Part shown: piece after piece, positions 26,997-36,077 of the stretch
Position numbering within the stretch: position 1 is the stretch's first letter
Layout of the letters: each line of letters starts with the position of its first letter
DNA from: Candidatus Moraniibacteriota bacterium
GTDB taxonomy: Bacteria > Patescibacteriota > Minisyncoccia > Moranbacterales > UBA1568
Direction: 5' to 3'
Assembly (NCBI GenBank): GCA_028711705.1
Contig: JAQTRS010000001.1
Coordinates: forward strand, 98,761-162,760
DNA length: 64,000 bases
The notes under the pieces: model-generated
Told to the model about the DNA's origin: nothing
Databases searched by the model: none
The model's input: only the letters and a program-made list of their open reading frames with translations
Made by a program: the position numbers and the translations under genes

Positions 26997-27023
26997 TTCC
27001 AAAACACGGAAACCGAAAACACG

Positions 27024-27060
27024 AGCGACCTCCCATAATACTGGAAGGTCGCTGTTTTTT
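27024..27060. terminator. Rho-independent terminator (bidirectional)
   Basis: agcgacctcc ... ggaaggtcgct stem followed by TTTTTT. Confidence 0.7.
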
Positions 27061-27080
27061 ATTCCGAAATATTTTCTGCC

Positions 27081-27371
27081 TTATCCGCGCGCCTCAAAGC
27101 CGATAGAATCCGCCGGGGCATCGGCCGTCTTGATAACCCCGAAAGCATCCTCATATTTCTTAAGATTCTCCTGAAGTGTCTGAGCGATGCGCTTCAGATG
27201 GCTCGGCGAAACGATGACCCGGGCATTGAGCGTCCCCGTCGGCGGGAACATATTCAAGAAATCCAGCACGAACTCCTCCCTCGTATGCAGCACCTGCGTC
27301 GCATTGGCATACACCCCCCGCAACGTCTCATCCGCCGCCTTGATCTGGATCTGGTTTGGTTGTTGTGTCAT
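27081..27371 (-). CDS. DUF3467-domain protein
   Basis: GVYANATQVLHTREEFVLDF...ARVIVSPSHLKRIAQTLQENLKKYEDAFG matches the DUF3467 signature. Confidence 0.7.
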   Translation of the reverse strand: MTQQPNQIQIKAADETLRGVYANATQVLHTREEFVLDFLNMFPPTGTLNARVIVSPSHLKRIAQTLQENLKKYEDAFGVIKTADAPADSIGFEARG

Positions 27372-27382
27372 ATTTATCAGTG

Positions 27383-27877
27383 TTATTTAATTACCAGTTT
27401 ATCTATTTTTGATAAAGCATCATCAGTATACATAACTGCTCTCAAAAGCTCTTGTTTTGTAATACCATCAATCAATTTATGGTGCGATGGATTTCTTAAT
27501 AAATCATGCACAATGCAACACAACGAGTGACAATGCGATAAAGGATCAGCATATACAAGAATTGAAGCTCCTGGTGTAAGAGCTTTTCCTATTAGTCCTC
27601 GGCCAATAAAGGCTTCTGTCAAGCCTGATTTTTTTCTAAGCCTATCTTCAAGAATAACCGTGATTTCTCTGTATGCTGCATCAAGGTTTACATCCTTATC
27701 AGAAAGAATAGATCGTAATCTTGATTTTAAGATACTATCAGAAGTCATGGCGAGTATATCATCATACTTTGTCAAAAAATACCAGTGTTCAAAGTATTGA
27801 ATTAACATGTCAATCCTCAAAAACGCCTGATTTATATCAACAAATTGATAGCTGCTTGAAGTTGAAGATAGAACCAT
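27383..27877 (-). CDS. Hypothetical protein (AT-rich)
   Basis: 164-aa ORF in a markedly AT-rich stretch downstream of dnaK; no family recognised. Confidence 0.45.
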   Translation of the reverse strand: MVLSSTSSSYQFVDINQAFLRIDMLIQYFEHWYFLTKYDDILAMTSDSILKSRLRSILSDKDVNLDAAYREITVILEDRLRKKSGLTEAFIGRGLIGKALTPGASILVYADPLSHCHSLCCIVHDLLRNPSHHKLIDGITKQELLRAVMYTDDALSKIDKLVIK

Positions 27878-28040
27878 TGAATCTATGATTTTATATGAAC
27901 CGAATTGCGCATCACTTGTATCAGTTATACACTTATCGATTTCTTTATTATAAAAATCGGCTTCGACTCGAGGGAGATTAGGGGCTTTCTTTCATCCCAA
28001 CCATTTTGTATCGATTTAAAATGATTATAATGTAAGTATA

Positions 28041-28124
28041 AACCCGCCCTTTGTTTTTTAGTCATACTAACTTAACTCAAGGGCGGGTCCCTATTACTTA
28101 CCCGCCCTTTTTTCTACCTATTAT
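28041..28124. terminator. Terminator region downstream of dnaK, with three GGGCGGG / CCCGCCC repeats forming alternative hairpins on both strands
   Basis: aaacccgccctttgttttttt ... aagggcgggtccctattacttacccgcccttttttct, a hairpin plus T-run readable on either strand. Confidence 0.55.
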
Positions 28125-30044
28125 TTACTTTTTCTCTTCGTCGTCTTTCTTGTCCTCTACCTCAGCGTCTTTGACTTCACCTTCGGGCTTTGCTTCGCCT
28201 TCAGTGCTTCCTGCTTGGCTCGCCGTAGATTCATCGGAGGAGGCAGCGGCTTTGTAAAGCTTCTCGCCGATGCCTTGGGCGGCTGCGGAGAGGGCTTCGG
28301 TCGCTTTCTTGATCTCATCGAGGTTGTCTCCGTTCTTGACCTTATTGAGTTCGTCGAGCTTTTCTTGGACCGGCTTCTTCTCGTCCTCGGTCAGCTTGTC
28401 GCCAGCATCCTTCATCGCTTTTTCCGTGGTGTAGGTGAGCGAGTCGGCCATATTGCGAGCCTCGACAAGTTCTTTCTTCTTCTTGTCTTCGTCCGCGTGC
28501 GCCTCAGCATCTTTCTTCATTTTCTCGATTTCTTCTTTGGAAAGTCCGGTCGATGCTTCGATGCGGATAGACTGGCTCTTATTCGTCGCCTTGTCCTTGG
28601 CAGTTACGGAGAGAATTCCGTTGGCGTCGATGTCAAATGTCACTTCGATCTGCGGAATACCGCGTGGAGATGGTGGAATACCGTCGAGGATAAATCTTCC
28701 GAGAGATTTGTTGTCGGCAGCCATTTCACGCTCACCTTGCAAGACGTGGATCTCTACGCTCGGCTGATTGTCAGCGGCGGTCGAAAATACCTGCGACTTC
28801 GCAGCAGGAACCGTCGTGTTGCGCTCGATCAAAGCAGTGCGCACGCCACCCATGGTCTCAATTCCAAAAGTAAGCGGGGTTACATCGAGGAGCAATACAT
28901 CCTTCACCGATCCTTCGAGCACACCTCCCTGGATAGCGGCGCCCATAGCTACCACTTCATCAGGATTCACGGAGATATTCGGTTTCTTGCCGAAGAATTT
29001 CTCAACAGTCTGGAGTACGAGCGGCATGCGGGTCATTCCTCCCACCATCACGACTTCATTGATATCGCTAGTCGAAAGCTTTGCATCGGCAAGCGCTTTC
29101 TTCACCGGCTCAAGCGTCTTTGCCACGAGGTCGCCCACCAATTCTTCAAGCTTCGCACGGGTCATCTTGAGCACCAAGTGCTTCGGCCCGGATGCATCCG
29201 AAGTGATGAATGGCTGATTGATTTCTGTATCATTGGCAGTTGAAAGCTCGATCTTCGCCTTCTCAGCCGCTTCTTTGATGCGCTGCAATGCGAGCGGATC
29301 TTTGGAAAGGTCGATTCCTTCCTGCTTGCGGAATTCATCGATGATCCAGTGGATGATGGTCTGGTCGAAGTCGTCTCCACCCAGGTGCGTGTCACCGTTG
29401 GTCGAACGCACTTCCACCGTGTCTTCGGATACTTCGAGGATAGAGATGTCGAATGTTCCTCCACCCAAGTCATACACAGCGATCTTCTCGTCTTTCTTCT
29501 TGTTGAATCCGTATGCGAGCGCTGCGGCTGTCGGTTCGTTGATGATTCGACGGACATTGAGTCCCGCGATTTCTCCGGCTTCCTTGGTCGCCTTGCGCTG
29601 CGAGTCATCGAAGTATGCCGGAACGGTAATCACCGCTTCCGTGATCTTTTCTCCCAAACGTTCTTCGGCATCGGCCTTGAGCTTGCCCAAGATCATAGCG
29701 GAAATTTCCTGCGGAGTGTACTCCTTACCACCCATCAGAACTTTCGTTCCCTCGCCAGCCTGCACGATCTTGTACGGCAAGGTCTTCAAATCGCGTTGCA
29801 CCTCCGCGTCGTTGAAGTGCCTTCCGATCAATCGCTTGATAGAGAAAAGCGTGTTTTCCGGATTAGTCACGCCCTGGCGCTTCGCCAAAAGACCCACCAA
29901 TCGCTCACCTGTCTTGGACACTGCTACCATGGAAGGTGTTGTGCGGTTCCCCTCCTTATTCTCGATAATCGTAGGCGTCCCACCCTCGACGATAGACATC
30001 GCGGAGTTGGTCGTTCCCAAGTCGATTCCCAAAATCTTTCCCAT
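28125..30044 (-). CDS. dnaK: Molecular chaperone DnaK (Hsp70)
   Basis: 639 aa, collinear with Hsp70 throughout ([21 protein letters not shown] motifs) and ending in an acidic EEKK tail. Confidence 0.97.
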
Positions 30045-30087
30045 AGAATTTTTATTATATGATTAATGCTTGTGCACTTACCTCTGT

Positions 30088-30093
30088 AGTATA
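30088..30093 (-). promoter_or_regulatory. Putative -10 box (TATACT) of the dnaK promoter, just downstream of CIRCE
   Basis: The minus-strand reading gives CIRCE, then cgtttggTATACTacag, then about 40 nt, then the ATG. Confidence 0.5.
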
Positions 30094-30101
30094 CCAAACG
30101 A

Positions 30102-30128
30102 TTAGCAGTCGTCAAGTCCGAGTGCTAA
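30102..30128. promoter_or_regulatory. CIRCE operator (HrcA binding site) upstream of dnaK
   Basis: TTAGCAGTC-N9-GAGTGCTAA versus the consensus TTAGCACTC-N9-GAGTGCTAA: one mismatch with a perfect right arm. Confidence 0.85.
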
Positions 30129-30377
30129 TTCTTCAGACAACACTGGATTAAAGGCTTAACAAAGTGAATAATTAACGGTTATCGACTATCTTAGCACTCT
30201 TTATCGCTAGACAAAAACGCGAATGGTATGCTAGCATGAATCTTCTCCCTTAGCTATGATAATGCAAGATTTCCTTGTTTTCTCTTCGGTGAGGAAGAAT
30301 CGTTTTTCCTTATCCTGCCGGGCGACTGGCGGGCTGGTCTGCGAAGACCTTCATCACTCCTTTATGAGGATACGACC

Positions 30378-31415
30378 ATGCGTAGTTTTTTAACAACCAC
30401 CTCGTTCTTGGAACAGCTTGCCGTCCAATATTGCGGATCTCGTGAACGCCTTTCGATTAAGAAATATCCGGTGAACGGATACCCATATATCTTAAGCGGA
30501 CACTCCATACATCCCGCTAAACGAGGACTCTATGATTCTCAAGCGCTGCAGAAATTCATCACGAAACTCTTCAACAAAATTATCGACGCAGAGGAAAAAG
30601 ACAGCGGTAAGGTCAAAATCTTACGCGAAGCTTCACTGATCGATGACGGGCTTATCGCCAACAAATCAGCATTGCAAGACGTCTTCCAAAACGAAGATGC
30701 ATTCGTTGTCGAAGTCCCTCCCCTGCATGCGCAATTCAAGTGCAAACGCTTCGGAAGCGACTACGGTATAAGCGTACTCAGTACGAACGGCAGGAATGAG
30801 AAGCATCAAAAAATATCCTCCCTGCTCGATGATTGGCTACTGGAAGAAGATCGCCCCACCGGCCTAAGAACGCTCGAACATCGATACGTGATAACGACAC
30901 AAAGAACGTTTAGCGATTCAAGAAGCTCTGAAAAGTTCAATCTTTATGATGTATTAGAGGGTTTGAAAAAATATATCCCCTGGATCTGCTGGTTCGGTGG
31001 GTCTACTGATGTGGAATCCTTTGCCGCGAATCTTGTCGACCAATGGCGAAGCGAGTATCACGATACTACCTCTCTTGGAGAATACAAGGAGATCGATATT
31101 CGTGGCAGACTGCTCTACGGTACGGAAGAGCAAAGAAAGATGTGGGCATGGCGCTGCGGCAGCCTTGATACGGAACACCCTTTCGATGAAACTTCCGGAG
31201 TGGTGTCGTTTCGAAAAGGCCATTCCTCTCAAAATGATAACCCTCATATAGAGCTTATCATTTCCGCACCGGGGTTTTCCGAAGACAGCTGGGCTTTCGA
31301 AGGCGATGATGGCGCTCGCTGCTATCAGCATCAGTTCAAAATGGAAGCGGCAGCCATTCAGATCATCACAGGCCTCGGATTGTACGGGGATAAGGACATC
31401 GTGCGTTATATGTAA
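30378..31415 (+). CDS. Hypothetical protein (first gene of the insert between dnaK and grpE)
   Basis: 345-aa soluble ORF with no recognisable motifs, followed by a terminator. Confidence 0.55.
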   Translation: MRSFLTTTSFLEQLAVQYCGSRERLSIKKYPVNGYPYILSGHSIHPAKRGLYDSQALQKFITKLFNKIIDAEEKDSGKVKILREASLIDDGLIANKSALQDVFQNEDAFVVEVPPLHAQFKCKRFGSDYGISVLSTNGRNEKHQKISSLLDDWLLEEDRPTGLRTLEHRYVITTQRTFSDSRSSEKFNLYDVLEGLKKYIPWICWFGGSTDVESFAANLVDQWRSEYHDTTSLGEYKEIDIRGRLLYGTEEQRKMWAWRCGSLDTEHPFDETSGVVSFRKGHSSQNDNPHIELIISAPGFSEDSWAFEGDDGARCYQHQFKMEAAAIQIITGLGLYGDKDIVRYM

Positions 31416-31467
31416 CGCTAAAAAAGAACCATAGAAGCACAACTGTTTTCTCTGGTATCATCAATCA

Positions 31468-31505
31468 AAGGCCGCCTGACTTGATACAAGCGGCCTTTTT
31501 ATTTT
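31468..31505. terminator. Rho-independent terminator
   Basis: ggccgc-N14-gcggcc followed by TTTTTATTTTT. Confidence 0.65.
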
Positions 31506-31645
31506 TCATACACATGCATACGAATCACTCATTGTAAAAAGACAAGGGAAATCAAGAGTCGATAGAATATCGAAGTAAAATAAAACAGCGCTACTCATCC
31601 TTTATGTTATAAAGAATTTTTGCGCTGTATTGTTTGTTTGACGTT

Positions 31646-32161
31646 TCAGGCTGCCGCCATACGATCTTTTGAACCTTTCGAGCAGCACTTCATGACATAA
31701 TCAGCCACGTGGCCGATCAGGCGTGATTGATCACCTTTAAAACTCATCGAGTCCAGATACGCTATGGCAAATTCACGCCATGGCGCTTCAACGGACATCG
31801 AGGGCGTATCACCACGCGATGAAGTGGCATATACCAACTGTGTTAAAAAACCATCCAGTTGATTCAACCCCAAAACATTGGTAAGAATCGTCCTGACTCT
31901 TAGGTTGTTCCAGTTTTCCGTCGCATTCATCAACGCAGTCAATCGGAGCACTTGCTTTTGACAGGCATCCTCCCCAGTTGGCTGAATCGGGAATTTACTT
32001 TTGATTTGAGCGAACGCCATTCTTGAATGCATACCAGATGCAACCCACAAATGTTCTAAAATGGTCGCTTCCGGCAGGCCAAGCCGATATAATTCTTCCA
32101 CAATGGGAAGTTCATCCGAATTCAGGCATCTTGATCCTGCAACAGGCATATTGGTATTCAT
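31646..32161 (-). CDS. Hypothetical protein (divergent from the RT gene)
   Basis: 171-aa ORF with no recognisable family; it shares a 240-nt divergent promoter region with the RT gene. Confidence 0.5.
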   Translation of the reverse strand: MNTNMPVAGSRCLNSDELPIVEELYRLGLPEATILEHLWVASGMHSRMAFAQIKSKFPIQPTGEDACQKQVLRLTALMNATENWNNLRVRTILTNVLGLNQLDGFLTQLVYATSSRGDTPSMSVEAPWREFAIAYLDSMSFKGDQSRLIGHVADYVMKCCSKGSKDRMAAA

Positions 32162-32330
32162 GACAGACTCCTAGGGCATCACCCTATCTCATTGATATAT
32201 AGCCCTCCCTCGACATGAAGGGGACGTTTTTTAAACAACTACCTCATATTCCCAAAATAGCTTCCGTTTCTGAGAATAAGCCATCCTAACACATAGGACG
32301 CCTCTAGTCAAGGACTTTTGTCACTGATTA

Positions 32331-32359
32331 TTGACAAGAGAACCCGTTTACACTATAAA
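32331..32359 (+). promoter_or_regulatory. Consensus sigma70-type promoter for the RT gene (TTGACA-N17-TATAAA)
   Basis: TTGACA at 32331-32336, a 17-nt spacer, then TATAAA at 32354-32359. The RBS GGGAGG lies 5 nt before the ATG at 32401, and an in-frame stop sits 7 codons upstream of the ATG. Confidence 0.6.
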
Positions 32360-32400
32360 GAACTCAGTTCCTTTTACTATAAACTCGTCCGGGAGGTTCT

Positions 32401-33111
32401 ATGAAAATAAAAAATACACCTCCCGGATTCGCTTCAAAGCTTCTCGGGAATGGGCGGCGTGTCTTTATAATAAAGCCCCGCAGCCTGGATCTATACACCG
32501 TCCAACAAGATGTCAAACAAGAATTGGGACGTATAACCGCGTTCACTAATCAATTTGATTGCGTGAAACGGCACCTGATTCGCAAGAGCAGATTCTTCTG
32601 GAAGGTGGACTTGCGGAAAGCATTCGATCATGTGACATTCGCATCAGTCACCACCATTCCCAACCTTCCTGATGATATAAGGCATTCCCCACAACTCTTT
32701 TTCCATACGAACGGAGGACTCATCCAAGGTGCCCCATCATCCCCGAAAATCTTCCAGCTGTTTTGCCAACAACGCTTGGATCCAGAGATTCAGAAGTTCT
32801 GCGGGAAAAATACTATCGTCTACACGCGTTTCGCTGACGATCTTCTGTTCTCATCGAGGAAGGCTATCGGGAAAGGCGCACGCGAAAGAATACGCATCAT
32901 CATCCGCTACGCTGGATTTCACGTCAATGAGAAAAAGGTATCGCTCGTGGACAACAGCTATACACCCATCGAATATCTCGGCATGGAAATTTTTCAAGGA
33001 AGAGTCTCTCCCGAAAAAGAATTCCTCAAAAGATTCTCACTCATTCCGGATGGGCCGGAAAAAACCGGGATGCGCGGCTGGATAAAATCGGTGCTTGCGC
33101 TCAATACATGA
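32401..33111 (+). CDS. Mini reverse transcriptase (236 aa; fingers/palm only, no thumb/X, maturase or endonuclease domains)
   Basis: RT motifs in order: FFWKVDLRKAFDHV (motif 2/A, catalytic D), GLIQGAPSSPKIFQLF (motif 4/B, QGxxxSP), YTRFADDLLF (motif 5/C, FADD), GFHVNEKKVS (motif 6/D) and YLGMEI (motif 7/E). The protein ends about 35 aa after motif 7. Confidence 0.8.
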   Translation: MKIKNTPPGFASKLLGNGRRVFIIKPRSLDLYTVQQDVKQELGRITAFTNQFDCVKRHLIRKSRFFWKVDLRKAFDHVTFASVTTIPNLPDDIRHSPQLFFHTNGGLIQGAPSSPKIFQLFCQQRLDPEIQKFCGKNTIVYTRFADDLLFSSRKAIGKGARERIRIIIRYAGFHVNEKKVSLVDNSYTPIEYLGMEIFQGRVSPEKEFLKRFSLIPDGPEKTGMRGWIKSVLALNT

Positions 33112-33134
33112 AACGTGTACATTGAAGACAAGCG

Positions 33135-33160
33135 TATCTGCAAGGACGCAGACTTTTTGC
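33135..33160 (+). terminator. Weak terminator hairpin after the RT gene
   Basis: tctgc-aaggac-gcaga followed by cttttt; only a 5-bp stem. Confidence 0.35.
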
Positions 33161-33170
33161 TTCGTGGCCG

Positions 33171-33430
33171 AGAGCACATCACCGCCTGAGACAAGGCGAT
33201 TCTTACGCTAGAATCCATCCTTCTCAGGTATTTTTCTAGGGTCAACGCGCCCTACGACACGCCTCATCGGCTTTGCACTCCAAAACAGCACGCTTTTCTG
33301 GCTATACAATAGAATCCTATTGCCAAGAAGTAGAATCCTCCTTAATTCCAATGACATCCCTGCTCCGGCCACGGTCAATCTGGAACAAACTAAAACCCTC
33401 TCAAGCAAAGCTTCAGAGCGGTTTTTTATT
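33171..33430 (+). ncRNA. Candidate structured non-coding RNA downstream of the RT (possible RT template or partner ncRNA)
   Basis: About 250 nt without an ORF between two terminators. It has nested hairpins (cctgaga[...gattct-tacgct-agaatc...]tctcagg; taggg-tcaacgcg-cccta; caatag-aatc-ctattg), three TAGAATCC repeats, and ends in a good terminator (ccctctcaagc-aaa-gcttcagag + CGGTTTTTT) at about 33398-33428. Confidence 0.25.
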
Positions 33431-33527
33431 ATCTTTGCAACGTTCCCTCTTGAGAAAACCTGCGTCTATGCTAAACTGTAGCTGCACATTAACAATCCCA
33501 TAAACCAAAACCAAAAGGAGCGATGCT

Positions 33528-33872
33528 ATGTCCGTACTCATAGTACCGAAATCGATAATCAGAATCGTTATCGACCCCAATTCCAAAAAAATAGGTTCTA
33601 AACGAATCCAAAGAACAAATTCCGACCAAGCGCTGGATATCCAATATCCTGTCGTGGAAAAAGTCACAAAACAGACCTTGCTTATACAAGAGTTCGACAG
33701 CGATAATGGCAAAGCGCTCATACGATGCCGTCCCAACTCTAAAAAAACGGGTGAATATACCTATCTCTACTACGACAGAAACCACGAAAAAATTGAACAG
33801 ACTATCACCTCTTTGGCATTATTCGATGAAGGTGATGAGGAGATCAAGGTCAATGTCTTCCTTACCTGTTAG
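33528..33872 (+). CDS. Hypothetical protein (last gene of the insert)
   Basis: 114-aa ORF with a strong RBS (AAGGAG, 8 nt before the ATG), followed by a bidirectional terminator. Confidence 0.55.
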   Translation: MSVLIVPKSIIRIVIDPNSKKIGSKRIQRTNSDQALDIQYPVVEKVTKQTLLIQEFDSDNGKALIRCRPNSKKTGEYTYLYYDRNHEKIEQTITSLALFDEGDEEIKVNVFLTC

Positions 33873-33890
33873 ACCCTTCAACAAGCACAC

Positions 33891-33924
33891 CAAAAAGCCA
33901 TACACCGCGATGCATGGCTTTTTA
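33891..33924. terminator. Bidirectional terminator shared by grpE (-) and the 33528..33872 gene (+)
   Basis: aaaaagccat-acaccgcgatgc-atggcttttt. Confidence 0.65.
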
Positions 33925-33951
33925 CATATCCATTTTTCGAATACCGATTCC

Positions 33952-34521
33952 TTACTTCACGGACACCTTGGCCGGGCGGATGACCTTGTCCCCGATCCTG
34001 TATCCCTTCTGAAGGACTTTCGCGACCGTCTGCATCTGGGGTGCCTCCTCCTGAGACTCCGCCTCTTCCGTTGACTGTTCGTCGCTGATCGCCTCGTGGA
34101 TGCTCGGGTCGAAGGCGTCGCCTTCTTTCACCTCGATCACCTGCATACCGTTGGCGGTCAACACATCTTCCAATTGCTTCTCGATATACTGGATACCCAC
34201 CACCCATGGATCGGATTTGGAACCTTCCGGAACATGATTGGTCGCCATGCGGAAATTGTCGAGCACCGGAATAAGATCCAGCACCAGTCGCTCGATCAGA
34301 TAGCCGGAGAGCTCCTTCTGCGACTCCTGCTGGCGCTTCTTGTAATTCGCAAAATCCGCCTGCAATCGCTGCAAGTCATGCAGGTATTCCTGCGCAAGCT
34401 CTTCCGGCGTTTTTTCCTTCATTTCCTCGGGGGTAACTTCTTGAGCAGCCTCTTTCGGCGAAGTTTCCGTTTCTTTCATATCTTTCTCTGCCTTTGTTTC
34501 ATCATGCTTCTTTGATTTCAT
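33952..34521 (-). CDS. grpE: Nucleotide exchange factor GrpE
   Basis: 189 aa; coiled-coil N-terminal half and C-terminal GrpE beta-domain (VLDNFRMATNHVPEG...QKGYRIGDKVIRPAKVSV), immediately downstream of hrcA. Confidence 0.9.
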   Translation of the reverse strand: MKSKKHDETKAEKDMKETETSPKEAAQEVTPEEMKEKTPEELAQEYLHDLQRLQADFANYKKRQQESQKELSGYLIERLVLDLIPVLDNFRMATNHVPEGSKSDPWVVGIQYIEKQLEDVLTANGMQVIEVKEGDAFDPSIHEAISDEQSTEEAESQEEAPQMQTVAKVLQKGYRIGDKVIRPAKVSVK

Positions 34522-34535
34522 ATGGTTGTAGGATC

Positions 34536-35300
34536 TTACAAAATTACTTTGACCAGGATAATCGCGACTGGAAGCGATGCGCCCGACGACGAACTCAGAA
34601 GCTTCTTCACGTATTCCAAGAGCGATTTATTCTTGGCATACTTCATGCGCTTGGGACCGATAATCGCCAAAACGCCGCGTTCCCCGTCCTTATTGCGATA
34701 CGGCGCCACCATCATCGAGCAGTTCTTGGATATTTCGGGAATAGGATTCTCTTCGCCGATGAATATCCGCATCGAATCGTCCTTCATGCCCGCAAGCAAT
34801 ACATCGAATTTCTCATCCAGCGAATCCAGCGTCTCCACCAAGCGGCACAATTCATCAAGCTCCCGGAACTCCGGCGCCTCGATCAGTTCCTTGATACCGA
34901 AATCATAGAACTCATCTTTAGAGGCATCACCCATCACCGCAAGGTTACCCGACAGCGCCGAAAGGAGTTTGGCTGTCGTGCGCGAAAGCCGCGTCTGCTT
35001 CGCTTTCATCATCAAAAGTTCGGCCTGCAATCGCCGCTGCTCTTCCTTGGAAAGTTCCTGATCGCCCATGACTTCCTCGATATAGAAGCGATAACCCTTG
35101 TCCGTCGGGATGCGCCCGGCACTGATATGCGGCTGATACAGGAAACCTTCCTCTTCCAGGTGCGCCATATCGTTGCGCAAAGTCGCCGAACTCACGTCGA
35201 ATTTATGGCGCTCTAAAAGGACCTGCGAACCCACGGGCAGAGCCGTTTCCGTATAGATCTCGACGATAGCCGCGAGCACTTTTTGTTGGCGTGTATTCAT
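34536..35300 (-). CDS. hrcA: Heat-inducible transcription repressor HrcA
   Basis: The N-terminal winged helix (QQKVLAAIVEIYTETALPVGSQVL...SSATLRNDMAHLEEEGFLYQPHISAGRIPT) is collinear with HrcA. A CIRCE lies immediately upstream, and a TATACT -10 box sits 8 nt before the ATG, so the transcript is near-leaderless. Confidence 0.9.
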   Translation of the reverse strand: MNTRQQKVLAAIVEIYTETALPVGSQVLLERHKFDVSSATLRNDMAHLEEEGFLYQPHISAGRIPTDKGYRFYIEEVMGDQELSKEEQRRLQAELLMMKAKQTRLSRTTAKLLSALSGNLAVMGDASKDEFYDFGIKELIEAPEFRELDELCRLVETLDSLDEKFDVLLAGMKDDSMRIFIGEENPIPEISKNCSMMVAPYRNKDGERGVLAIIGPKRMKYAKNKSLLEYVKKLLSSSSGASLPVAIILVKVIL

Positions 35301-35323
35301 ATGCTTTCAGTATACAATCCGAA

Positions 35324-35350
35324 TTAGCAGTCGTCAATACTGAGTGCTAA
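35324..35350. promoter_or_regulatory. CIRCE operator upstream of hrcA-grpE
   Basis: TTAGCAGTC-GTCAATACT-GAGTGCTAA: a 9-9-9 architecture with the same C-to-G variant in the left arm as the dnaK CIRCE. Confidence 0.85.
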
Positions 35351-35372
35351 GCGCATGGTCCGGACAGTCCGG

Positions 35373-35414
35373 ATAAAAAAAGCCCAAGGCGATATATTAC
35401 AACCGGCCTTGGGT
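35373..35414 (-). terminator. Rho-independent terminator on the minus strand downstream of yidD
   Basis: Minus strand reads cccaaggc-N16-gccttggg followed by CTTTTTTT. Confidence 0.55.
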
Positions 35415-35670
35415 TAAGCGATACCCTGCTTTGAAGGATTCTATTTGCTGCGATCGGGTGTATCAAACAAAAAAATACCAACCGACTGCAATATCCCGTT
35501 TCGAAGCTCCTGCTTTACTCATAAGAAACCGGACATCTATGCTGACTCTTTTGCAATATCTGCTCCCCTGCAGGAAATATTTCTGCCTCCTCTCATGAAA
35601 CATCCGCTTGCGTATCATGCACACATACGTTGCGAAAGGCGGAGCATTTTTTCCCGCCGCCGCTCGATAA

Positions 35671-35988
35671 TTATTTCTTACCTTTACGGGTAAATGTATC
35701 CTTAACACCGTCTTCACCTTCTTTCGTTTCTGTTTTCACAACCGGATCATACCCGCCCGGATTCCAGGGATGGCAACGAAATATCCTGTGCAGTCCCATC
35801 CAACCGCCCCGCAGCACCCCGAAGCGCGAAACGGCTTCATACGTATACTGCGAACAGGTCGGATAGAACCGGCAAAACTTCACCGGCGTGAACCACGAAA
35901 CAATCCCCGTATCGAATGAAAGGGTCTTTTGGTACACGCGTATGCAGAATAGAATAATCTTTTTCAACACGTACGCATAGTAGTTCAA
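35671..35988 (-). CDS. yidD: Membrane protein insertion efficiency factor YidD
   Basis: [15 protein letters not shown]...[10 protein letters not shown], the conserved core of the YidD/hemolytic-domain family. Confidence 0.75.
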
Positions 35989-36077
35989 ATACCGGATTTT
36001 GTCAATAACGGAAACCGGTATATACTAAAAACAGAAACTCACTAAAAACTGTTCACCGGAACTGAAAAAACAAAAAG

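Follow-up and report, generated by a model that had tools for sequence, protein, structure and literature searches.

A compact retron-related reverse transcriptase coupled to a structured 3′ RNA in CPR bacteria

In a 64,000-nucleotide (nt) stretch of the genome of a Candidatus Moraniibacteriota bacterium (contig JAQTRS010000001.1, positions 98,761 to 162,760; henceforth called the window), a small reverse transcriptase (RT) gene and a structured RNA lie between the heat-shock genes grpE and dnaK. The two are read here as one conserved unit, predicted to be a single transcription unit of 1.1 kb (32331–33427, plus strand) with a promoter, an RT of 236 aa, an RNA of about 300 nt, and a terminator. 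Throughout the lineages of the candidate phyla radiation (CPR, Patescibacteria) that were compared, RNA and RT are physically linked, retron RTs are the nearest relatives of the RT by sequence and structure, and no protein-coding neighbour of the pair is conserved. On balance, we favour the view that 32331–33427 is a self-contained retron-related RT with its own 3′ RNA, part of which would be copied by the RT, i.e., a compact CPR pair that is new within a known class, the prokaryotic systems of RT and non-coding RNA (ncRNA). An original prediction, made from the letters of the window only, had grouped the RT, a non-coding region, and three unfamiliar open reading frames (ORFs) between grpE and dnaK into a retron-like or defence-associated RT (DRT)-like system; all of these parts are present in the window.

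The RT gene (32401–33111, plus strand) encodes a compact retron-like protein of 236 aa with a Pfam RVT_1 match at 2e-15. Its translation carries FFWKVDLRKAFDHV, QGAPSSP, FADD, GFHVNEKK, and YLGMEI, and the tail after YLGMEI comprises about 39 residues. Homologues were retrieved from a large protein collection (n = 30; 232–284 aa, 31–72% identity, nearly all with a query coverage of at least 97%), and their alignment runs end to end with D70, D146-D147, the GLIQG of motif 4, K179, and G194 invariant. A family profile searched against 1.84 billion cluster representatives yielded about 31 full-length members (231–276 aa, E ≤ 1e-44), each standing for a cluster at 50% identity, and about 58 representatives at E ≤ 1e-30. 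Below this core, the same search listed a few longer relatives of 316–349 aa and, farther down, the bulk of ordinary retron-like RTs of 300–330 aa at about 110–135 bits. A scan of 185,579 species genomes, limited to one peptide pattern, found six loci of the family, and a tblastn search of metagenomes with the RT, for which 80 of 431 positive stretches were kept, returned many RTs of other types. According to genome records, the hosts are Saccharibacteria, Kaiserbacteria, Nomurabacteria, and unclassified Patescibacteria as well as one member of the Giovannonibacteria assigned by source name; judged from these sequence searches, the family appears to be small and has been seen only in the CPR. 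On viral contigs (IMG/VR scan), no full-length member but only other RT types were found, and tblastn against phages gave only weak partial matches to other RT types.

Modelling of the RT with AlphaFold2 (AF2) and the family alignment resulted in a very confident fold (predicted local distance difference test (pLDDT) 95.6, predicted TM-score 0.89). In the model, motif 7 is followed by two short helices (residues 206–214 and 219–233), which align to the start of the C-terminal region of the retron RT Ec86. The RT had been described as short and thumb-less; its small size and short tail were borne out, whereas the thumb is, according to the model, reduced to two helices rather than absent. Because the family is uniformly small, the catalytic residues are invariant, and the fold is confident, the small size of the RT is regarded as native and not as the outcome of truncation or of decay into a pseudogene. 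No endonuclease or integrase domain was found in the 236-aa protein by Pfam or in the AF2 model.

The affinity of the RT was assessed by profile scores and structural comparison. Its best PADLOC models were those of retron RT types II-A, I-B, and III-A (66–77 bits, residues ~51–187 only), with no DRT model among the top 25 PADLOC matches, and its best NCBIfam match was retron_St85_RT (62.6 bits vs a cutoff of 235). The group II RT/maturase model TIGR04416 scored 27.8 bits (cutoff 300), Drt2 23.6 bits (cutoff 390), and Drt3a 14.6 bits. In a Foldseek search against the PDB, the retron RTs Eco2/Ec67, Eco7, Ec78, Ec86, and Ec83 were the top matches (E about 1e-12, query TM 0.70–0.75, about 20% identity) and ranked ahead of GsI-IIC, G2L4, DRT9, and DRT2. 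Positions 45–227 of the family profile align to residues 97–284 of the 320 residues of Ec86 RT (6.6e-19); compared with Ec86, about 50 N-terminal and about 27 C-terminal-end residues are missing from the family. Retron RTs are recognised by the signatures NAxxH in region X and VTG in RT7, of which the H and the G are most conserved (PMC7736814). The invariant H58 of the present family aligns to this H and the invariant G194 to this G, and the other signature positions read xVxxH and [YF]LG. On retron models, the family together with its longer sister clade scored 45–65 bits, whereas ordinary retron-like RTs reached 105–112 bits over nearly their full length. The RT remained below every curated threshold for retrons, DRTs, and group II elements, and no system family of PADLOC, NCBIfam, or Pfam claims it. 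On the basis of scores and structure, the RT is therefore read as a separate branch within the retron-like RTs, outside all retron types described so far. Both the retron-like affinity that had been proposed (retron RTs being closest by hidden Markov model as well as by structure) and the statement that no known family fits (PADLOC, NCBIfam, Pfam, and Rfam leave RT and RNA unclaimed) were thereby upheld.

Directly downstream of the RT ORF lies its partner (33112–33427, plus strand), a cognate structured ncRNA that is formally the 3′ untranslated region (UTR) of the RT mRNA and was recognised by nhmmer, by the z-score of its fold, and by comparison of related loci (numbered with the prefix L). 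With nhmmer, the RNA was detected only directly after the RT (L001/L002/L006, L003/L004/L012, L013, and L005), and the same RNA architecture was found in L010, L023, L020, L007, L015, and L016; in the lineages examined, it follows the RT whatever the neighbouring genes are. The DNA past the RT stop codon is kept in sister Moranbacteria and in L005, the RT of which is 46% identical. Upstream of the RT promoter, identity between the window and its relatives is about 32–37%. Against L001 and L003, it amounts to 32–33% there, 62–70% in the promoter and 5′ UTR, 72–75% in the RT ORF, 83–87% in the 5′ module of the RNA, 45–51% in its variable centre, and 75–84% in its 3′ module, i.e., the two RNA modules are conserved at least as well as the RT ORF. 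Mechanical ORFs of 53–83 aa from the six-frame list cross the region; the segment is considered not to be coding because the relatives differ by indels of 1–2 nt inside conserved blocks. It had been described as an ORF-free segment of approximately 250 nt, of which the structured, non-coding nature and the terminator of its own were corroborated, whereas the length is closer to 300 nt and the mechanical ORFs run through it. A second candidate RNA proposed at 32162–32400 was not supported, as conservation is lost upstream of the promoter.

The window RNA (33132–33427) folds at -92.1 kcal/mol with z = -5.07, and none of 200 shuffled sequences folded as well. When 16 loci were folded independently by minimum free energy (MFE), a long-range helix closing a multi-hairpin domain was obtained in 15, and most of the RNAs also end in a terminator hairpin. 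Rfam had no match to the RNA in the window at E ≤ 1, nor in 14 related loci at the gathering score. In the shared architecture, a 5′ hairpin (H0) is followed by a domain that a covarying helix (P1) closes and that contains conserved internal hairpins as well as a variable centre; the terminator comes last.

H0 (33137–33152, plus strand) is a 5-bp hairpin with a GGA-containing loop (TCTGC-AAGGAC-GCAGA). Of the 12 loci that represent the two main RNA subtypes, 10 have such a hairpin right after the RT stop codon or overlapping it, compared with 13% of random windows, and its stems covary (CTGCA/TGCAG, CCGCA/TGCGG, CCACA/TGTGG, and CTCA/TGAG). In L005, H0 overlaps the end of the ORF, and in L023 it begins 1 nt past the stop codon. 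This placement leaves no room for a separate promoter, and the RNA is hence expected to be transcribed together with the RT as its 3′ UTR. In the window, H0 is followed by CTTTTT (33137–33159 in total), a combination that was flagged as terminator-like; the T-run is missing at this place in other lineages, and in this lineage, hairpin and T-run could reduce the share of transcripts that continue past the RT ORF into the RNA.

The 5′ strand of P1 occupies 33162–33176 and its 3′ strand 33361–33374 (both plus strand). Alignment of eight divergent RNAs with MAFFT followed by RNAalifold recovered H0 alone, with register errors in the 3′ module, and for this reason P1 was tested with an anchor: its 3′ strand was defined by position alone as the 10 nt before the GGTCAnnTGG (or AAGCTTGGAAT) motif. 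This strand pairs at 8–10 of its 10 positions with a segment 7–12 nt past H0 in 11/11 loci, and the helices have seven unrelated sequences among these loci. In shuffles that allowed for partner selection, the observed pairing was reached 0–21 times in 2000 in eight loci and 80–174 times in 2000 in the other three. Pairs were then counted in constructs with fixed linkers, for which the 5′ strands had been picked by complementarity, a choice controlled by the partner-selection shuffles: 92.7% of the cells were paired vs 48% in shuffles, 0/500 shuffles reached the observed value, and all 10 pairs change on both sides.

P1 encloses two conserved internal hairpins (33184–33229 and 33235–33257, plus strand; MFE fold and RNAalifold), which show compensatory changes among Moranbacteria and L005 in RNAalifold. 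They are followed by the variable centre (33259–33329, plus strand; 70–100 nt long across relatives), which holds the 5′ strand and the loop of an imperfect hairpin with a stem spanning 33292–33331. The hairpin H3 (GAAT...ATTC, 33333–33355, plus strand) overlaps element E (TTCCAATGAC, 33346–33355), and a segment reading GAATCATC..TGATTCCAA.GAC, located by covariance models, is nearly invariant in the window, L001, L003, L013, L010, and L023. Motif A (GGTCAATCTGGAA, 33373–33385, plus strand) is the candidate 3′ strand of a tentative pseudoknot (P2) with element E, in which TTCCA-A-TGAC (33346–33355) would pair with GTCA-ATC-TGGAA (within 33373–33385). By duplex prediction, the partner of motif A falls at element E in 11/11 loci, and the paired sequences differ (TCCC/GGGA in L005, TCCAA/TTGGA in L010, TTCCAA/TTGGAA in L023, and CCCAAA/TTTGGG in L020); the shuffle fractions per locus were 0.002–0.23, each case being weak alone. 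With covariance models of the 3′ module (R1 and R2), the window, L010, and L023 were recovered; L005 and L015 came up only at E = 0.8–1.8, and L020 and L007 were missed. The unit is closed by an intrinsic terminator (33392–33427, plus strand; a stem followed by T6). A terminator hairpin with a T-run ends the RNA in most of the related loci folded, and conservation ceases right after it.

A deviating arrangement was observed in L014, where a plain terminator stands right after the RT stop codon and where, upstream of the RT at the start of the contig (8–125, plus strand), a 3′-module-like stretch (CATCGTCCTGATCCATTTGG ... GCCAAATTGGAAAG) precedes a hairpin resembling a terminator. The units of this locus may be arranged in tandem, or their order may have been rearranged.

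The putative promoter of the unit was read directly from the plus strand as TTGACA (32331–32336), a 17-nt spacer, and TATAAA (32354–32359). It was omitted by the consensus promoter scan, which accepts only -10 hexamers ending in T. TTGACA and CTATAAAGA are kept in L001 and L003/L004, whereas the DNA farther upstream is not. Promoter and start codon are 41 nt apart, and the 5′ UTR (32360–32400, plus strand) contains the ribosome binding site (RBS) GGGAGG at 32391–32396, of which GGAGG is kept in the relatives. Upstream of the promoter, a hairpin followed by T6 is present at 32206–32232 (plus strand), at which no plus-strand gene terminates; its equivalent in L001 is the terminator of a gene for a protein with an RNA polymerase alpha C-terminal domain (alpha-CTD), and the hairpin of the window may be a relic of a replaced gene.

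Three ORFs adjoin the unit and lie outside of it: a 345-aa ORFan (30378–31415, plus strand), a 171-aa ORFan (31646–32161, minus strand), and a 114-aa ORF between the RNA terminator and grpE (33528–33872, plus strand). Among 5.8 billion proteins, the 345-aa and 171-aa proteins matched only themselves. None of the three obtained a Pfam, PADLOC, NCBIfam, or PHROG assignment, tblastn against phages with the 345-aa and 114-aa proteins gave no match, and a single-sequence AF2 model of the 345-aa ORFan was unusable (pLDDT 33). In 20 related loci, no counterpart of any of them adjoins the RT. In an all-vs-all comparison of the ORFs within 4.5 kb of the RT, the RT was the only protein common to the 21 loci, with dnaK and grpE common to the close Moranbacteria.

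In related Moranbacteria, the same slot is filled differently. L001 (5174–5854, plus strand) and L013 (75–707, plus strand) carry, on the same strand and just upstream of the RT, a gene for an alpha-CTD protein of 210–226 aa that is 70% identical between the two; it is not present in L003, and no remnant of it was detected in the window. This gene may belong to the RT module as a dispensable accessory, or it may just be a neighbour of longer standing. In L003 (5006–5836, minus strand) and likewise in L004, a DDE_Tnp_1 transposase takes the position of the ORFans between dnaK and the RT, from which it follows that the slot beside the RT turns over. The RNA terminator abuts grpE without a 114-aa ORF in L001 and L013, and this ORF is hence an extra insertion in the window genome. 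Taken from the sequence comparisons, the 345-, 171-, and 114-aa ORFs appear to be lineage-specific filler of a variable slot and not partners of the RT. In other CPR lineages, the RT–RNA pair is located between glycosyltransferase genes or next to genes for RelA/SpoT, a Mur ligase, or a UvrD-family helicase-nuclease. In L010 and L023, two distant loci of the family, a UPF0102/YraN-like gene (confirmed by Pfam for L010 only) lies directly upstream of the RT on the other strand, and a similar gene for 260–273 aa lies downstream; this points to local synteny in that lineage, with tRNA genes nearby in both loci. A gene converging on the RNA terminator in L015 (3169–3726, minus strand) encodes a PaaX_M (Cas2-like) domain (1.3e-20) and was seen in this one lineage only.

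The window, L001, L003, and L013 carry the module at the same site, with identities of 93% for DnaK, 92% for HrcA, 66–79% for GrpE, and 59–84% for the RT, and sister Moranbacteria with 71–72% identical RTs at this site hold different genes in the slot. This divergence of the RT at a fixed site beside heat-shock genes implies that the module was inherited vertically while the adjoining slot turned over. The contig CAZUWR010000001.1, from which L006/L001 derive, is labelled as uncultured Bdellovibrionales bacterium; its DnaK and HrcA are 92–93% identical to those of the Moranbacteria window and its gene order is equal, and the taxonomic label looks wrong.

The heat-shock genes themselves were taken from the six-frame ORF list and are all on the minus strand (hrcA, 35300–34536; grpE, 34521–33952; dnaK, 30044–28125). 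A bidirectional terminator (A5-stem-T5, 33892–33923) adjoins grpE, and a near-perfect controlling inverted repeat of chaperone expression (CIRCE; 30102–30128) lies on the dnaK side, where the consensus promoter scan also marked a promoter-like TTGACG-16-TATACT on the minus strand that overlaps it. The RT promoter, the GGGAGG RBS, CIRCE, and the bidirectional terminator had all been listed before and were found again by direct reading. Just downstream of dnaK, GC content falls to 0.35 at 27383–28000, compared with about 0.5 in the flanks. This patch contains a 164-aa ORF (27383–27877, minus strand) with a sub-threshold Hypoth_Ymh match (23.7 bits vs a cutoff of 25), which adjoins a gene for a DUF3467 protein (27081–27371, minus strand), and may be a second small acquired patch.

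As to how the favoured retron-related pair might work, the RT, once translated, would bind the 3′ RNA, probably in cis, with H0, H3, and GGTCAnnTGG (motif A) as candidate recognition sites. Contacts with the RNA could stand in for the N-terminal and thumb mass that the RT is missing. A defined stretch of the P1-enclosed domain would then be copied into a short complementary DNA (cDNA), parallel to the msd of a retron within its a1/a2 helix, and, with no dedicated effector, the particle of RT, RNA, and cDNA may itself act, in the manner of DRT2 and DRT9. Defence against phages or mobile elements would be its likeliest role and is plausible by analogy. The family being rare and its flank variable, an accessory or defensive function of the module is favoured; housekeeping neighbours as well as stable inheritance would allow for a cellular one, such as a housekeeping task with nucleic acids in these reduced genomes.

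Several observations weigh against the favoured pair and its proposed action. The RNA is located 3′ of the RT, compared with 5′ in the canonical retron (PMC7736814). The branching G of retrons, expected after the 5′ strand of P1, is not conserved there; as read from the folds, the base at this position is C, A, G, T, A, and C in six lineages, and a priming G may lie elsewhere. The variable centre folds only into modest hairpins without a long msd-like stem. The pairs of H3 and P2 never vary in the six sequences aligned by covariance models, so that covariation is silent either way, both helices stay unproven, and P2 is held tentatively. Synthesis of cDNA, binding of the RNA by the RT, and transcription of the unit are all predicted from sequence, the case for defence consists of analogy and the apparent rarity of the family, and vertical inheritance beside heat-shock genes together with housekeeping neighbours elsewhere would fit a domesticated cellular role equally well.

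A domesticated role of this kind is the content of one alternative, according to which the same machinery serves as a housekeeping RT–RNA particle of the CPR, e.g., for the repair of DNA, for priming, or for synthesis on RNA templates. A role in repair has been reported for a bacterial G2L4 RT, and the module has no effector, sits among core genes (RelA/SpoT, Mur ligase, UvrD-family helicase-nuclease) in some lineages, is vertical at its fixed site by grpE and dnaK where it diverges at a GrpE-like rate, and is not found as a full-length member in viral contigs (IMG/VR). The family looks rare, however, unlike a core function (~58 representatives in 1.84 billion proteins; six loci in the one-pattern scan), and in Moranbacteria it is flanked by the variable slot with ORFans and a transposase; we consider this role conceivable but doubtful. 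About as tentative is the possibility that the pair represents a CPR-specific, so far unrecognised class of reverse-transcribing ribonucleoprotein, in which the smallest free-standing RT known (about 235 aa) would act in cis on its own mRNA, at a 3′ end folded into a pseudoknot, and RNA would take the place of the lost N-terminal and thumb domains. Such a class would prime in another way than retrons and make another product, as there is no branching G at the expected position and no effector. That the unit is, or formerly was, a mobile retroelement, the RT recognising its mRNA at the 3′ end in the manner of elements without long terminal repeats and copying it for insertion at new sites, would accord with an RNA that is the 3′ UTR of the RT mRNA, with the sharp borders of conservation from promoter to terminator, with the differing genomic contexts between lineages, and with the possible tandem units of L014. 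It is improbable given a single copy in the 64-kb window, a site that is stable in sister genomes, and a 236-aa protein that carries no endonuclease or integrase domain.

The four-gene retron-like or DRT-like system of the original prediction, in which the 171-, 345-, and 114-aa proteins act as effectors with the RT and the ncRNA, drew on genes that adjoin inside one grpE–dnaK insert, each with plausible expression signals, and is in line with the modular nature of retron effectors (PMC7736814). It appears largely refuted by the sequence comparisons and is now very unlikely: a collection of 5.8 billion proteins contains no homologues of the 345-aa and 171-aa proteins but themselves, all three ORFs are missing beside the RT in the 20 related loci, sister genomes with 71–72% identical RTs carry other genes, and no defence domain was matched. 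Scarcely credible is a decayed retroelement, i.e., a truncated retron or group II relic with a functionless RNA leftover downstream. The RT is indeed 50–90 aa shorter than characterised retron RTs and below all curated thresholds, but its size is constant in about 31 clusters, its catalytic residues are invariant, its fold is very confident, promoter and RBS are conserved, and the RNA is at least as conserved as the ORF with a covarying main helix; no group II intron RNA was detected, and TIGR04416 gave 27.8 bits vs 300. The earlier view of the RT gene as intact and apparently expressed, and not as the remnant of an intron, was supported. A nearby group II intron RNA and a non-conserved downstream RNA had been named as findings that would speak against the earlier proposal; no such intron RNA was detected nearby, and the RNA is conserved, with a main helix that covaries.

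Prokaryotic RT–ncRNA systems (retrons, DRT2, DRT3, and DRT9) have each shown unexpected DNA synthesis, and the present family adds a CPR lineage to them. Its anatomy is unusual, with a native RT of 231–276 aa, a partner RNA that is the 3′ end of the RT mRNA, and no effector gene. As a clonable unit of 1.1 kb, it lets one ask what a minimal RT requires of its RNA, and a confidently folded RT of 236 aa with a cognate RNA scaffold would be an attractive start for compact retron-style or prime-editing tools. The three neighbouring ORFs should not be chased as effectors.

The RTs of diversity-generating retroelements (DGRs) have an SQ-type motif 4, whereas motif 4 of the present family is QGAPxSP. 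A DGR was rejected since, on both strands of the 64-kb window, every 40-nt stretch of the RNA is present only once, even if differences at adenines (at thymines for the reverse complement) are disregarded and a single further mismatch is tolerated. DGRs accounted for about 80% of CPR RTs in a 2021 review (PMC8632793). UG38, one of the unknown groups (UG) within the UG/abortive infection (Abi) RTs, has been reported in the CPR and is the closest mention of a CPR-specific RT group that was found; the RT here scores best on retron models, not on DRT models, and resembles the UG/Abi family less than the retrons. In the open-access papers searched, no description of the RT family or its RNA was found, and an earlier description elsewhere is possible. 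Group II and group II-like RTs (GsI-IIC, G2L4) share the fingers-palm fold and the QGxxxSP-type motif 4 with the RT but differ in that intron RNA domains, a maturase domain, and a full thumb are absent here. A group II intron was dismissed, with no Rfam intron match at E ≤ 1 in 27000–36000, 27.8 bits vs 300 for TIGR04416, and a putative promoter 41 nt ahead of the start codon.

The retrons (Ec86/Eco1, Ec78, Ec67/Eco2) resemble the RT unit in that their ncRNA is contiguous with the RT gene and on the same transcript, which is predicted for the unit as well. P1 is comparable to a1/a2 as a long-range closing helix with a variable interior. The family does not vary at the residues aligned to the H of NAxxH and to the G of VTG, while the rest of these signatures differs. 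Compared with retron RTs, the present RT is 50–90 aa shorter, truncated at the N-terminus, and equipped with a two-helix thumb; its RNA is 3′ and not 5′, shows no branching G that is kept where one would be expected, and folds without a long stem of the msd kind. Tripartite retrons further contain an effector, whereas no effector gene is conserved in the 21 loci here and the neighbours in the window are ORFans.

The position of the RNA is comparable in DRT3 (UG3 + UG8 + ncRNA), in which the ncRNA is located at the 3′ end of an RT gene (PMC9226505), as in the RT–RNA module. DRT3 differs in having two large UG/Abi RTs and an RNA with a CACACA-like motif, in place of which a GGA loop and GGTCAnnTGG are found here. 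In DRT2 (UG2) and DRT9 (UG28), defence is provided by an RT and an ncRNA only, the latter being structured and lineage-specific (PMC9226505); RT and ncRNA are each required and, for DRT2, sufficient (PMC9226505). Membership of the RT in UG2 or UG28 was rejected (Drt2 23.6 bits vs 390, with higher scores on retron models). The RT of the window is about half the size of the DRT2 and DRT9 RTs, and the ncRNA of those systems stands 5′ of the RT. Nonetheless, the RTs of DRT2 and DRT9 are among its structural matches in Foldseek, and their two-part composition without an effector protein matches that of the RT–RNA module, as known here from sequence alone.

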